Below, piece after piece: positions 1,805 through 64,000 of a DNA stretch of 64,000 bases (within the stretch, counting starts at the first letter, position 1; each line of letters starts with the position of its first letter). A model generated the notes under the pieces. That model was not told where the DNA came from, made no database searches, and saw nothing but the letters and a program-made list of their open reading frames with translations. The stretch is from Octopus vulgaris (Eukaryota): assembly GCA_951406725.2 (NCBI GenBank), contig OX597821.1:78244001-78308000 (forward strand), given 5' to 3'. A program made the position numbers and the translations under genes.

Positions 1805-2230
1805 TATAAAAATTTTTTCAGTATGAGATAAAAAAAACCCCAAGGCTGTGAAGATTTTAGAACATTTATAAATAGGACTTACAGCTGTTTCCAGGATATT
1901 TATTATATCCCTTCATCGGAGACTGTGTGAGAAAATGGTTAAGCAATAGCTAATTTAGATAAGAAACGAAATAGAGAGTAAAGTGGAATTTCGTATCTTA
2001 TCTAAATTAACTATTGCTTAACCACCTTCTGAAATCTTCACAGCCTTGGTCTCTTTATCTCATTCTGGAAAAATAAATTATATTTACACATGCTGATATA
2101 TGACCTACGTTGGATTCCTTATTCTCATAATCACCGAACCGGGAGCTTAACTATGGTCTAACCATAGCACTTACTCTGCATTACCTGATACCTTTGGGTC
2201 TTAATGACACAATTACCTCTCATAACCTTC
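1805..2230. mobile_element. Non-autonomous Penelope-like element with nested inverted repeats and a degenerate hammerhead motif
   Basis: Inverted arms at about 1808-1860/2025-2075 and 1935-1970/1988-2024. Minus strand 1876-1926 reads cagtct-CCGATGA-agggatata..tatcctg-GAAA-CAGCTG-TA. Confidence 0.55.
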
Positions 2231-2659
2231 TATATGTACATATATATTGGTTCATCCCATACATAATGCGGTTTTTTCAATTGCATGAACTAAAAGTCGG
2301 GTGGGGGACGGGAAAAACTACCAGCATAAATTTGCTATAAAAGCAGGTAGTAATTTTACCTTGTCCTTATTCTTAGTGCAAATTTTGAAGAGTGCAGATT
2401 TTAACAGTTATTTCTTCAAAGCTATAATGTAAGTGTCAAAGAAGCAAATTTCAATAAACGCAACAGCGTAACAGAAAGTGTGAAGAATATTAATGCAATA
2501 AATGGGAATCGGACAATAAGCCAGAGCCATTCCTCCATTCATCGAGACATGCATGCGATCGCAAAAGTCAGCAAATTGAGTTAAAGGATTCCTCACAAAC
2601 TTTCCGAGTCTAATCGCGTGCTGAGAGTGAATGTGTGCTCTTCTTTGCTGTCACGTGTC

Positions 2660-3060
2660 ACGTCTCACGAACGAACCTCTTTTGCTGCAGGATTTTCAAG
2701 GAAGTAGACCTGATGACTGTGCAGCAAATGCACATTTATAGTCATGTTGCAATGCAGTGCTCGAAAACTGGTTAACGGGGTCTGCACAAGATCTCCATAA
2801 TTTGATGGCTTCCTGTTTCTCTGGAAATCAGATACAACTGCAACAAAAGCATTCCATGCTTCTTTTTCAATGTCACACATGGTCTCCAAAAATAGATCGT
2901 CCTCCGATTGTCACCTAATATGTGGCCCATGAAACACTCCAACTTTATTTTTCTCACAAGACAAAACTAGAATCTTTCTACTTAAGTATTTGAAGCAGTC
3001 ACTGCCTCAGTATTTCAAAAAAATGTTTTGCACATTATATGGGATGCCCTAGCTTTGTCT
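2660..3060 (-). mobile_element. DNA transposase remnant (CMC/Chapaev-like)
   Basis: FKYLS..KIK..GVF.GP.IR, EKEAWNAFVAVVSDF..NYGDLV..CNMTINVHLLHSH..FLEN resemble the AW.SF..VV.NFLGN / CNMSLKIHFLHSH motifs; frameshifted. Confidence 0.65.
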
Positions 3061-3899
3061 TGTCACCCAGTTTCATGCTAAAGTAAGTGAGGAAGTAAGG
3101 TAAGCGTTCTTCACAAAATCTGTGTTTTTGTTTCACTGCTTAATCCAGAAATGAGCAGAAGATATCAGAACAGTTTTTACATTCTCTTCTCTCACAACTG
3201 GCTATATTTCTGAAATACAAAACATGTTCAAGCCAGTCAGTTGTCAGCTAGAAAATCATTTTCAGAAAAGTCAACAGTTATAAAGTAAGGAAATACGGAT
3301 TTGTGATGGTAAAGTTCCATAAAAATCATACCATGAAGTTCTCTTTACAATTCTTTGACCATACTTAACGAAAACTGAGCTTGGAAAAACATTAAGCGTA
3401 CTTTCAAAATAGCAATTTTCATGACAGTTAAAAGTTCAACAAAACATGTCTCATCTAGTTTTTGCAAATTAAACAAACTAAATTAAGCAAAGCTTGAGTA
3501 TATCTGCAGATTAATTCCGCAAATACGAGCATATGGTGCCAAGAGCCAGAAAAATATGTTGTTTCTTAACATCTAATTGTATAAAGGACATTTCTGTCAT
3601 CATCATGACATTTAAAACCGGTTACAATAGATAATGGCCACATAATAGACGGATAGATGAACAGAAAACTCTGTGGGAATCGAAATCAGAACGTAAAATT
3701 ACAAAAGATGTTATCAGTCGGTGCATAACTTCTACAGAGTCACTGTCTTCTCTTCCTCTCTCTTTCAAGATGGGAAATGGTAATGGCAAAACAAATGTTA
3801 TGAAAGCACAAATCAGTGATTGTGTTTTTTAACAGAGAATTATAGAAACAATTGTGGTTATTTCTCTCATTCAATTCCTAATGATATTAATTCTCTTAC

Positions 3900-3912
3900 C
3901 TTTAAGATTCAT
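3900..3912 (-). CDS. Coding part of exon 1, paralog A (MNLK-G)
   Basis: ATGAATCTTAAAG|gtaaga. The phase-1 donor matches the exon 2 acceptor, and the same micro-CDS is conserved at 56332-56344. Confidence 0.75.
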
Positions 3913-4480
3913 GACTGTTACAGAGTTTCTTTGTAATATTCACTTTGACTTGAAAATCGCCGAAACAGAGGTGTCTCACTGGAAAGAAGATCTTCTGCCA
4001 CTTGATGCTTCTCGTTTTTTTCCAGTTTCGGTAAACGGGGTTATTTAGTATTTTATAGTCGTTCTGACACAAGTCGATGAAACCAGTTGATTTAACACTG
4101 CCTTCAAAAAAGATGTCCTTAAAACAATATCGTCAATTCTTGTCCACCTTTGTAAAGATATGTGAGCAAATTGAAATTACCTTCCCACTAACGCTAGAGG
4201 TTTGCCGTTATGCTTGAACACGTTTTTTTTTTCTTTCTCCCCAGAGAGTTTTGAGATCAAGATTAGAAGTAAGTTGTCGATTATATCATAAGATTCGTTT
4301 TCCAATCAATGTCCACTTCTATCCATCGACCTACGCAAATAAACTGCTTGAAACAAGTCACATATATTTACACATTTGATGAACAAAAGAAATGGATTTT
4401 AACTTCGCAGTATATTGATAGCTGTCAGTTTGTTTAGTTTGTTTGTATTTTGCACTAGACCACTTATCATTAATGCTGTT

Positions 4481-60690: not shown

Positions 60691-60901
60691 TATATATGTA
60701 TATATATATATATATATATATATATATATATATATATACAAATTGAGATAAGGGTTGTAAATGCAACCCTCCATAGGATAACATATATCCAATATACTGC
60801 TAGTGAAGTACCCAACAAAGTTTGTATTTCTCCATTTTCTTATCTTGTATATATATATATATATATATATATATATATATATATATTTATTATATAGAAG
60901 G

Positions 60902-60952
60902 AGCTTCTACAGGACTAGAACTGTTTCATTCAAGAGAAATCTTCAGGAAGCT
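60902..60952 (-). ncRNA. Type I hammerhead ribozyme, copy 1
   Basis: AGCUUC-CUGAAGA-uUUCucuuGAAu-GAAA-CAGuucuagucCUG-UA^-GAAGCU. Confidence 0.8.
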
Positions 60953-61984
60953 AGTTAACAAGAATTGTATTGGCATTTATACATTTAGGCAGGTTTAAAG
61001 GGGTGTTGGTGGGGGACTTTTTGGGGGTAGGCATAGCGCATAATATCATACTTGGGGGGGTGGTCAAGGAGTCAGTGTAGGTACGTAGAGTTATCTATGT
61101 GTGTATTTATATGTACATGTGTAAGTATGTATATATATATATATATATATATATATATATATATGTGTATGTGTGTGTGTGTGTATATATATATATGTAT
61201 GTGTGTATGTGTATATATATGTGTATATATGTATGTATATATATATATATATATATATATATATATATATATATATGTGTGTAAGTTTATATGTATGTAT
61301 CCGTCTATATAATAGGTAACTGCACGTACATATACTTAATATTTATTATTTATTTTTTGAGTATGCATGTATGAATAACTGCGCGTATATATATTTTACT
61401 ATTTACTTATTTTTTGAGTATGCATGTAAGTATGAATATAAGGAGGCGCGTGTGTGTGTGTGTATGTGTAAGCATAGATATATGTATACTTTTACGCATG
61501 GGTGTACTTATGTGTATATATGGATGCGTGCGTGTGTGTGTGTGTGTATGGGTACGCATGTACATGTGTATGTGCGTGTATGAGTATATGAGTATGTATG
61601 TATGTGTGTGCGTATATTTGTATATGTATGTATGTATATGTATGTGTGTGTATGAATATATATGTATATATGTATATATGTATATGTATATATATATATA
61701 TATATATAGATATATATATGCGCGTATATATATGTATGTATGTGGGTGTGTGTATGTGTATAAATGTATGTATGTATGGATGTATGGATGTATGTATGTA
61801 TGTATACGTATGTATATGTATGTGTGTATATGTATGTATGTGTATGTGTGTATATATGTGTATATGTGTGTATATGTGTATATATGTGTGTATGTATGTG
61901 TGTGTGTATATATGTGTATATATATGTGAATATATATATATATATGTATATATATATATATATATATATTTATTATATAGAAGG

Positions 61985-62035
61985 AGCTTCTACAGGACTA
62001 GAACTGTTTCATTCAAGAGAAATCTTCAGGAAGCT
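61985..62035 (-). ncRNA. Type I hammerhead ribozyme, copy 2
   Basis: Identical 51-mer to 60902-60952, 1083 bp away, within a direct repeat of about 190 bp. Confidence 0.8.
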
Positions 62036-64000
62036 AGTTAACAAGAATTGTATTGGCATTTATACATTTAGGCAGGTTTAAAGGGGTGTTGGTGGGGGAC
62101 TTTTTGGGGGTAGGCATAGCGCAAAAAATCATACTTGGGGGAGTGGTCAAGGAGTCAGTGTTAAATTAGATAGGAGAATAAATAAAAAATAAAAAATAAA
62201 AAATAAAAAATAAAAAATAAAAAATAAAAAATATAAAAAAAATATATAAAAAAATAAAAAAATAAAAAATATATATATATATATATATATATATATATAT
62301 ATATATATACAGGGGGAATAGAGTTTTAGGTAAATAAGGAGATTCTCACTTATACCTATGCACATATGTATACATATATACACACGCATACAAACATATA
62401 TACATATACATACACACATACATACACACACATATATATATATATATACATATATATACACTTACACATACATATACATATCTACACATACACATATATG
62501 TATACATACACACACTCACTTGCATACACGTATACACACATGTATATATACACACACGACCACACATACATATACACACAGAAAAATATATATACACATA
62601 CACACACATACTCACATACACGCATACACACACAAATCCACACACACACATGCACACACAGCACACTAGTCCCTATATACACATATATACACATACACAC
62701 ATATATATATACACACACACATACACATACATACACATATATATATATACATACATATACATACATATACATATATATATACATATATATATATATATAT
62801 ATACATATATATACATATGTGTACCTATGCATACCTACACATACACACATATATATATACATATACAAATACAGACCCATTCCCTAATTTTAATTTTATT
62901 ATCTTCGTTTATTACTTTTGTTATCTTTGGCCGCTTGGTCACAAACATCTTGGCTATGACAGCCAGACCATTTATCCGTCTACTGGAAAACAAGCACTCA
63001 TTCACTCACGCACACTCTTTAGCACGTACACTCACTCATTCGTACACTCATACGCATACACGCACGCACGCGTTATATTCATACATACATCTACATACAT
63101 TCACGTATATACACATACGTACGCGTACCTACAGATTCATGTCTACACTCTTAGAAGGCTAGTCTATACATATACACCAATAAATATAAATACACACACA
63201 TACATGTACATCTACATACAAATACATACATGTATATATATATATATATATATATATATATATATATATTCATACTTACATGCATACTCAAAAAATAAGT
63301 AAATAGTAAAATATATATACGCGCAGTTATTCATACATGCATACTCAAAAAATAAATATTAAGTATATGTACGTGCAGTTACCTATTATATAGACGTATT
63401 ATAATACGGATTATACATATAATAAACTTACACACATAGATATATATATATATATATATATATATATATATATACATATATACACATATATATATATATA
63501 TATATACACACACATACATACACCTACATATACACATACACACATACATACATATATATATATATATACATACACACACACACATACACATACATATACA
63601 TACACATACATACATATATATACATACTTACACATGTACATATAAATATACACATAGATAACTCTACGTACCTACATATACATAAACACACGAGCGTACG
63701 CGTATATGTACATATACATATACCCATGCACACGCATATATATATACATACATACATACACATACACACACATACACATATATATACATACACATATATA
63801 TACATATATATATATATATATATATATATATATATATATATATATACACACACATATACATACACACATACATACACACACATATATATACATGTGTGCA
63901 AACATACGTACATTCTCATACAAGCACACACACTTACACACATATATATACATACACACATACATATACACATACATATGCATACACACAAATATACATA

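Follow-up and report, generated by a model that had tools for sequence, protein, structure and literature searches.

A tRNA-headed repeat family with Penelope-type hammerhead ends in a microsatellite-rich stretch of the Octopus vulgaris genome

The 64,000-nucleotide stretch of Octopus vulgaris DNA considered here (contig OX597821.1, positions 78,244,001 to 78,308,000 of the forward strand; referred to below as the window, and numbered from its first letter) is rich in microsatellites, has a GC content of 35%, and carries a host gene on the minus strand together with remnants of long interspersed elements (LINEs), remnants of Penelope-like elements (PLEs) and a series of repeats with the topology of the hammerhead ribozyme. 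An original prediction, made from the letters alone, had described these repeats as an ecosystem of non-autonomous, ribozyme-processed retroelements that target microsatellites and are mobilized by the PLE reverse transcriptase (RT). One of the hammerhead families, with copies at 37.1 and 51.9 kb, was found to have a tRNA-like head that had gone unnoticed in that prediction. Judged by sequence comparison, this family is most likely a putative polymerase III short interspersed element (SINE) moved by PLE RT, and the other six hammerhead families are most likely the truncated ends of ordinary PLEs; taken jointly, the two statements form a reading that we regard as probable.

The complete tRNA-like head of the family occupies positions 51832-51914 on the minus strand, with an A box from 51904 and a B box, and continues into (AAT)n at 51831-51753. 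Joined head-to-head to it, with no spacer, is a hammerhead-plus-tail arm on the plus strand (51915-52025), the 5′ core of which appears by eye to be cut or changed. The second copy begins with an inverted piece of the head (36575-36601, minus strand; a 5′ inversion) and then runs along the plus strand through the 3′ half of the head with its B box (36597-36640), 364 nt of (AAT)n/(TAC)n/(GAT)n repeats inside the copy (36637-37000), and a segment at 37001-37185 that comprises a 60-nt middle part, a minimal hammerhead core at 37060, a PLE-type tail and then (TAT)n. In the 37060 core, G5 is replaced by A. Both window copies (2/2) join the tRNA-like head to the hammerhead end, in two geometries, and both geometries fit one RNA template copied from two primed strands. 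The A and B boxes, located with consensus patterns, are spaced as in a tRNA and lie close to the sharp 5′ boundary of the head (51911-51914). The unit measures ∼270 nt plus the tract and contains no TTTT, the first such run being at 37411 in the flank; in the 37.1 kb copy, 118 nt separate the long 3′ end from the point where stem II begins (37068-37185). Both window copies stand singly, and both abut microsatellites or other elements.

Public assembled contigs of runs X1, X3 and X15 (organism A) and X2 (organism B) were aligned to positions 51832-52200 at 80% likeness. Contigs fitting the family numbered 11,191-11,982 in each large run and 1,494 in X15, a run taken as RNA by guess, whose 1,494 contigs are no sign of transcription. 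Summed depth over most of the head and tail was 0.7-3.8 million and far above the ∼40-75 of single listed contigs, which suggests, by a measure that is not itself copy number, that the family is present at tens of thousands of copies. At 51923, 51926 and 51945 the letters found in most contigs restored a full stem II, the C15.2-G16.2 pair and an intact core. Likewise, loose ends before 51917 carried the middle part of the 37.0 kb region ending in an intact CUGAU (X2, X1 and X15; three of the four runs), which implies that the change of G5 to A at 37.1 kb is decay of that copy. Loose ends with (AAT)n after the head were found in X3, X1 and X15. Summed depth in the thousands was also seen at 52034-52182, a diverged, moderately repeated element beside the 51.9 kb copy. 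A 19-nt pattern tried as a further probe had no viral-contig match and one genome-contig match (L008), the flanks of which were unrelated, and was rejected as chance.

The joints between head and tail are described here for the 15 listed (72 more fall outside the listing, as do 735 loose ends). Thirteen of these 15 connect the 5′ end of the head (51899-51914) to tail positions 51963-51999 in inverted geometry, 12 of them in two to three runs; of the remaining two, one starts inside the head and one is of tandem type. Beyond the 5′ end of the head lies a short fold-back followed by diverse flanks (agreement 0.43-0.44). Two 3′ ends ∼30 nt apart were present in all three large runs, one after 52025 (174-248 contigs) and the other after 51997 (88-113 contigs); both run into diverse AT-rich flanks, the longer into TATT.

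These features can be explained by the following model of copying. Polymerase III would start at the head and read through to a T run in the flank. The PLE protein would bind the pseudo-long terminal repeat (pseudo-LTR)-derived end and nick AT-rich or (ATT)n DNA on both strands, reverse transcription would start inside the RNA at one of two sites, and two cDNAs primed from opposite strands would join head-to-head. Internal initiation would account for fixed 3′ ends produced from ragged polymerase III transcripts. The minimal hammerhead would remain mostly uncut in single copies, probably because cleavage would separate promoter and tail. PLE-type insertion marks in the window include both head-to-head inversions and partial tandems, and inverted and tandem insertions with a microsatellite bias are reported for PLEs (PMC8557442). 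Rotifer PLEs form palindromes at head-to-head junctions, and their pseudo-LTRs can move unrelated DNA in trans (PMC3846280). In the PLE of an anole, cleavage at ATT occurs on both strands, hammerhead cleavage is dispensable, and two internal RT starts are split by an optional tail of 30-40 nt, 111-118 nt past stem II (PMC11167929). In its fullest form, the proposal is that PLEs have a true SINE of their own in octopus, with a copy number in the tens of thousands. A tRNA-derived polymerase III head would be coupled to a pseudo-LTR of PLE type in which the minimal hammerhead is conserved, and PLE internal initiation would spare read-through transcripts the need for a defined 3′ end; this fuller claim is tentative, and we place it slightly below an even chance.

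The idea that the repeats are processed by their ribozymes did not fare well, given that the predicted cut after 51947 coincides with no joint among the 15 listed and that uncleaved RNA was the main template of the anole element in vitro (PMC11167929). The same joints bear on an explanation in which the families are retrozymes, whose monomers are cut by the hammerhead, circularized and reverse-transcribed from circles. The 14.3 kb element, of ∼1.2 units with a terminal direct repeat, would suit such a cycle, as would the one go-back and one tandem-type joint listed for the 37.1/51.9 family. No tandem array of two or more hammerhead units occurs within the window, however, and the motifs are minimal, one such motif tested elsewhere having shown no cleavage as a monomer (PMC4209133). 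Retrozymes are the least probable of the explanations weighed here.

It may also be proposed that two separate elements are involved, the tRNA head belonging to a conventional SINE that ends in (AAT)n and is mobilized by a LINE, for example of Dong/R4 type, and the hammerhead tail being a separate PLE end that often lands in (AAT)n. Both parts are very abundant, the head does end in (AAT)n, and remnants that we take to be Dong/R4-like adjoin both window copies. At 51914/51915, however, as in 13 of the 15 joints listed, the tail is joined in inverted orientation to the 5′ end of the head with no (AAT)n between them, a fusion that independent insertion into (AAT)n fails to explain. This alternative is very improbable.

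Several observations weigh against a PLE-moved SINE and temper the confidence placed in it. ARAGORN found no tRNA gene in the head, Rfam gave it no tRNA match at E ≤ 10, and its fold was no better than those of shuffled sequences (z = 0.54); worn SINE heads often escape tRNA models. The sense order of head, (AAT)n, middle part, hammerhead and tail depends on one window copy plus loose ends, and no listed contig bridges head, (AAT)n and middle part in that order. The joint sides are short, at 19-44 nt with 80% likeness, and a 9-nt internal duplication in the 37.1 kb copy may contribute to the 3′ end after 51997. LINE remnants that we presume to be of Dong/R4 type are themselves found at (AAT)n here, and, as noted, summed depth is not a count of copies. 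An open reading frame (ORF) crosses the hammerhead and tail of the 51.9 kb copy, as it would in an autonomous pseudo-LTR. A weak search with the translated tail gave no protein match and no autonomous PLE with this tail (34 candidates, none scored). Finally, no hammerhead was found behind the three window remnants that resemble P0003, the full-length PLE protein discussed below.

The open frame leads to the explanation in which an autonomous PLE has acquired a promoter derived from a tRNA, and the unit of head, (AAT)n, hammerhead and tail is its solo pseudo-LTR; each of the seven families would then be a truncated or solo PLE end, and no separate non-autonomous lineage would exist. Besides a promoter and a hammerhead, pseudo-LTRs include the opening codons of the ORF (PMC3846280, PMC11167929), most single motifs have been linked to truncated PLEs (PMC4209133), and the 12.2 kb family lies downstream of a GIY-YIG-type end. 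On the other hand, sequences past the head and tail are diverse (agreement 0.43-0.53 over the listed loose ends of the three large runs) and share no ORF or untranslated region (UTR), and, within the limits of that weak search, the tail frame occurs in no protein. We consider a solo pseudo-LTR unlikely. Between a SINE lineage of PLEs and truncated PLE ends, the independent amplification claimed for the families was borne out in part: the 37.1/51.9 family is very abundant and has its own sharp 5′ end, and the six others are likely truncated PLE ends.

To place this family among the other motifs, hammerheads were counted with an exact-core descriptor in which stem II may have unpaired bases at its foot and helix III is closed by C-G; the descriptor was written after the sites had been viewed and is accordingly post hoc. 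It returned four type I sites, at 14386, 59332, 60946 and 62029, all on the minus strand and by inference the four intact cores named previously. Shuffled windows gave a mean of 0.002 exact-core sites, 0 of 500 reaching four, and the reversed window gave none, so that the predicted excess of motifs over shuffled sequence was confirmed. Allowing one core change added 37060 (plus strand), giving five sites compared with a shuffle mean of 0.07 (0 of 500 shuffles). A first strict scan of the window had found one site, and an earlier, looser scorer, at a score of 17 or more, had found 59332, 14386 and 31190 as well as a site at 15807 that had not been named, at a background of 0.37 per shuffle (30 shuffles). 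The match at 15807 was rejected, being the complement of a GIY-YIG coding strand with a broken UH. The 3′ half of the motif (GAAA, a six-base palindrome and UH) occurred six times, compared with 0.37 per shuffle and a maximum of three in 300.

A perfect palindromic helix III is present at 1891, 14336 and 59276, and also at 25412, 48394 and 32888, three sites absent from the original prediction; helix III has 1 bp at 37.1 kb and is a near-palindrome at 60.9 kb. An unpaired base separates A9 from position 10.1 in four of five sites (37060, 14386, 60946 and 62029) and is absent from 59332. The G10.1-C11.1 pair occurs at 59332 and 37060, and a U-A pair following a mismatch at 14386, 60946 and 62029. 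All seven sites named in the original prediction are type I in some state, those at 1.9, 12.2, 31.1, 51.2 and 51.9 kb being worn or cut copies, and a 13-nt stretch was the sole cross-match among nine segments; the claim of at least seven sequence-unrelated families is thereby upheld. The 1.9, 14.3, 31.1, 51.2 and 59.3 kb families have one insertion each in the window.

Rfam detected no hammerhead in the whole window at gathering score and none in the 59.15-59.48 kb stretch at E ≤ 10; at E ≤ 10 across the window, no hammerhead was among the 150 listed of 308 matches, nearly all of which were microRNA models driven by microsatellites. It is Rfam that misses the motifs; the notion that such elements are hidden by simple-repeat masking is at odds with the annotation of PLEs at 6.83% of O. 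vulgaris, in 190 families. Minimum-energy folding of seven motif or head stretches showed no advantage over shuffled sequence (z from -1.66 to 0.85), and weak monomer folds are expected because the motifs need a dimer. Association with (TA)n-like tracts was also observed, 11 of 13 element ends lying within 30 nt of a microsatellite compared with 9% of background positions, in a comparison that is partly circular because the ends were placed partly by the tracts.

The individual elements differ in build. The 1.9 kb element (1805-2092) is a head-to-head inversion containing a degenerate minimal hammerhead on the minus strand at ∼1919, with the core CCGAUGA and, by eye, a weak stem I. At 14146-14626 (minus strand) lies a partial tandem with a unit of ∼396 nt, a terminal direct repeat of 59-86 nt and the intact core 14386. 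The 31.1 kb element (30870-31260, minus strand; outer ends placed by eye) has a degenerate core at 31190 in which U16.1 is changed to C and stem I is, by eye, reduced to 3 bp, and the 51.2 kb element (51167-51336) is an inverted pair, with an inverted repeat of 171 nt, that has a degenerate hammerhead in both arms, core and GAAA being changed, by eye, in each. An intact hammerhead with a long stem II (core 59332) characterizes the element at 59115-59500 (minus strand; outer ends by eye). Terminal duplications, as had been predicted, are carried by four of the seven: inverted at 1.9 and 51.2 kb, direct at 14.3 kb, and both direct and inverted at 60.9/62.0 kb; none was seen at 31.1 kb. A head-to-head pair absent from the original prediction was found at 25212-25590, its right arm starting at stem II and containing the hammerhead 3′ half at 25412.

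Some further stretches resemble parts of the motif. Two related copies of an inverted-repeat family (22380-22868 and 23348-23664) have a hammerhead 5′ core and stem II and no GAAA. A CUGAUGA with a flanking stem of 5-6 bp and its middle missing (23985-24010, minus strand), possibly a deleted hammerhead, lies upstream of and opposite to the PLE remnant at 24.06 kb. At 32860-32905 (plus strand), a hammerhead-like 3′ half with a palindromic helix III and a worn 5′ core is intronic and antisense.

Five PLE remnants had been predicted, and the search confirmed four clearly and one weakly. A GIY-YIG-type C terminus followed by a C-rich tract (15728-16021, minus strand) was matched by 150 of 150 fetched relatives, of which two of ten scanned match Pfam GIY-YIG, one of them above the cut-off. 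Searches by tblastn located a thumb/linker/GIY-YIG remnant at 20404-21004 (plus strand; P0003, E = 1e-38), an RT/thumb remnant at 24057-24484 (plus strand; P0007, E = 2e-10) and an RT-to-GIY-YIG remnant with an internal deletion at 48715-49474 (plus strand; P0003, E = 2e-13); the weak GIY-YIG-type remnant at 58437-58547 (minus strand) had a single match (E = 5.5e-4). None of the PLE remnants scanned matches Pfam RT or GIY-YIG by itself, and 103 further ORFs gave no PLE domain in Pfam. A degenerate hammerhead on the opposite strand (48380-48460, minus strand) lies upstream of the 48.7 kb remnant; by eye it has a changed C3, a worn stem II and the palindromic helix III at 48394, and it is likely the inverted pseudo-LTR of that remnant.

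P0003 is a full-length RT-GIY-YIG protein close to three of the window remnants. All seven public loci encoding its relatives carry a minimal hammerhead 172-199 nt past the end of the matched ORF, in three distinct sequences, with an unpaired U·U at the base of stem II as in the 60.9 kb family. The same build behind 7/7 loci supports the assignment of the window motifs to the PLE type. In one public locus (L005), two different minimal hammerheads, at 2306 (plus strand) and 2489 (minus strand), stand tail-to-tail behind a PLE ORF.

The sites at 12.2, 60.9 and 62.0 kb do belong to one family, as had been proposed, and they are two insertions, not three, 60.9 and 62.0 kb being parts of a single one. 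This composite insertion (60873-64000, minus strand) comprises an end with core 60946, an inverted body piece (61092-61979), a second end with core 62029 and a body that continues beyond the window, and the inverted piece is identical to its own body at 129 of 129 bases. The other copy (12180-14150, minus strand) consists of a low-complexity body, a C-rich tract, a hammerhead at 12244 and a short tail; GAUA replaces GAAA at 12244 (minus strand), and 153 of 156 aligned bases are identical to the 62.0 kb tail. The 50.6-64 kb region has an old duplicate at 1.2-14 kb, and an origin of the two copies by this segmental duplication was considered and rejected, the tails being 98% identical compared with 82-88% for the duplicated blocks, which makes a separate insertion or later conversion more likely. 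The body that ends in the 12.2/62.0 family exceeds 2 kb, and the copy at 12.2 kb lies 3.5 kb downstream of the GIY-YIG-type C terminus at 15728-16021, on the same strand and with low-complexity DNA between; neither fact agrees with the claim that all the families are non-autonomous. The 15728-16021 sequence is a possible autonomous parent of the 12.2 kb end, and it is plausible that the two form one element. Nearby, (AT)146 is flanked by the arms of a 41-nt inverted repeat (11799-11839 and 12132-12172), and a short stretch of the 60.9-family tail lies outside the left arm (11762-11779).

The host gene (31330-50998, minus strand) was mapped by tblastn of P0001 and splice sites as five coding exons (50992-50669, 47600-47505, 44025-43870, 33297-33178 and 31377-31330). 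Proteins that bear the species name Octopus sinensis are matched both by this gene and by one of the PLE remnants. The location of its first exon was not found. The first mapped exon is preceded by a splice acceptor and has no in-frame ATG ahead of its hydrophobic stretch, which indicates that the gene extends upstream. The 51.2 and 51.9 kb sites are then intronic, and the 59-62 kb cores lie perhaps in the first intron, so that the statement that intact cores fall outside genes could not be sustained. The gene being on the minus strand, the intronic 37.1 kb copy is antisense and under no cleavage pressure, and four sites cannot show depletion in genes. The degenerate 31.1 kb motif is in sense, ∼140 nt beyond the host stop codon, and may lie in the 3′ UTR because no AATAAA or ATTAAA occurs between the two or within 1 kb. 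P0001 has two repeats, of which the host gene lacks one. The host exon at 50669-50992 is paralogous to one at 1345-1671 (both minus strand), one of the pair having a weak PAN/apple-domain match (E = 0.028); the downstream exons of the 1.5 kb paralogue fall outside the window.

LINE remnants with RT and endonuclease domain matches occupy several kilobases of the window and are presumably of CR1 and Dong/R4 types. An endonuclease-RT LINE at 17164-20289 (plus strand) is nearly intact, one stop separating frames of 571 and 469 amino acids. Three other SINE-like families, which we take to be OR1, OK and OR2, have several copies (16408-16879, 21405-21880, 25848-26000, 29915-30104, 47798-47967, 52366-52535, 55583-55792 and 60501-60673). 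In BLAST comparisons, these three (16.4, 25.8 and 52.4 kb) had no match to the head of the 37.1/51.9 family.

The window-wide hammerhead pattern is largely the known state of a PLE-rich genome, and on its own it is expected biology, given the published PLE pattern and the share of O. vulgaris that PLEs occupy. SINEs are normally paired with LINEs. Parasites of LTR elements that have tRNA heads were described in 2024 (PMC10886601), and a tRNA-headed element with Penelope marks would, if correctly read, be the matching case for PLEs, beside the LINE and LTR partners. PLEs would then join the autonomous partners of parasites headed by small RNAs, and the family would represent the smallest natural substrate of PLE transposition. 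A natural substrate of ∼270 nt with thousands of aligned copies would permit direct tests of the role of the PLE hammerhead, and raises the question of whether the core is conserved in a non-coding parasite and whether cleavage helps or blocks copying. SINEs make up 11.6% of O. vulgaris, and the recently active families are mostly unclassified (PMC13282606); part of that fraction would record the activity of PLEs and not of LINEs.

Among known systems, the nearest to the window as a whole are the minimal hammerheads of PLEs, of which many families occur per genome, mostly as single motifs tied to truncated PLEs and with opposite-strand pairs included (Cervera & de la Pena 2014; PMC4209133). 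The octopus motifs are alike in being type I, in the unpaired base after A9, in the palindromic or 1-bp helix III and in the opposite-strand pairs. They differ in that the 14.3 and 60.9 kb motifs lack G10.1-C11.1 and that one family is tRNA-headed, and the octopus families are absent from the covered text of that paper. Giant squid has 235 Rfam hammerhead loci (PMC6962438). No description of hammerheads in octopus repeats was found in the literature searched, and the O. vulgaris annotation supplement had no match for “hammerhead” or “ribozyme.”

Animal non-LTR retrozymes are likewise non-coding, carry a type I hammerhead and are proposed to be derived from and mobilized by PLEs (PMC7229834; preprint 10.64898/2026.07.22.740005), the preprint treating them as non-autonomous PLE derivatives enriched between genes. 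In contrast to the octopus families, they are by definition tandem repeats, and their expressed form is circular. A word search of the preprint gave no match for “octopus,” “cephalopod,” “polymerase III” or “tRNA.” The octopus tRNA-derived SINEs OK, OR1 and OR2 (Ohshima & Okada 1994, as cited in PMC4758252 and PMC10886601) share with the 37.1/51.9 family a tRNA-like head with A and B boxes and a high copy number. In the literature searched, no description was found of an element that combines a tRNA head with a minimal hammerhead of PLE type and the marks of PLE insertion, nor of an octopus SINE that depends on PLEs or bears a hammerhead; Repbase, Dfam, SINEBase, Ohshima & Okada 1994, the Zenodo library of PMC13282606 and the supplements of the preprint lay outside that search and may hold the family.

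Two systems come closest to the 37.1/51.9 family itself. Poseidon of Anolis carolinensis (PAc; PMC11167929) resembles it in the two RT starts, the optional tail, the ATT target and the distance past stem II (111-118 nt, compared with 118 nt from the start of stem II here); PAc, in contrast, is autonomous and protein-coding. The closest precedent is provided by Sm-alpha and Sj-alpha of Schistosoma (PMC6765202), which are non-coding and SINE-like and have an apparent polymerase III promoter followed by a hammerhead. Sm-alpha is, however, often tandem, its hammerhead frees copies by cleavage, and the canonical hammerheads of S. mansoni are of a different type from the minimal ones (PMC4209133), whereas the octopus family has a minimal motif with a 1-bp helix III, single copies in the window, head-to-head inversions and an optional tail. 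The general association of hammerheads with PLEs is already in print, and the tRNA-headed 37.1/51.9 family is the new part.

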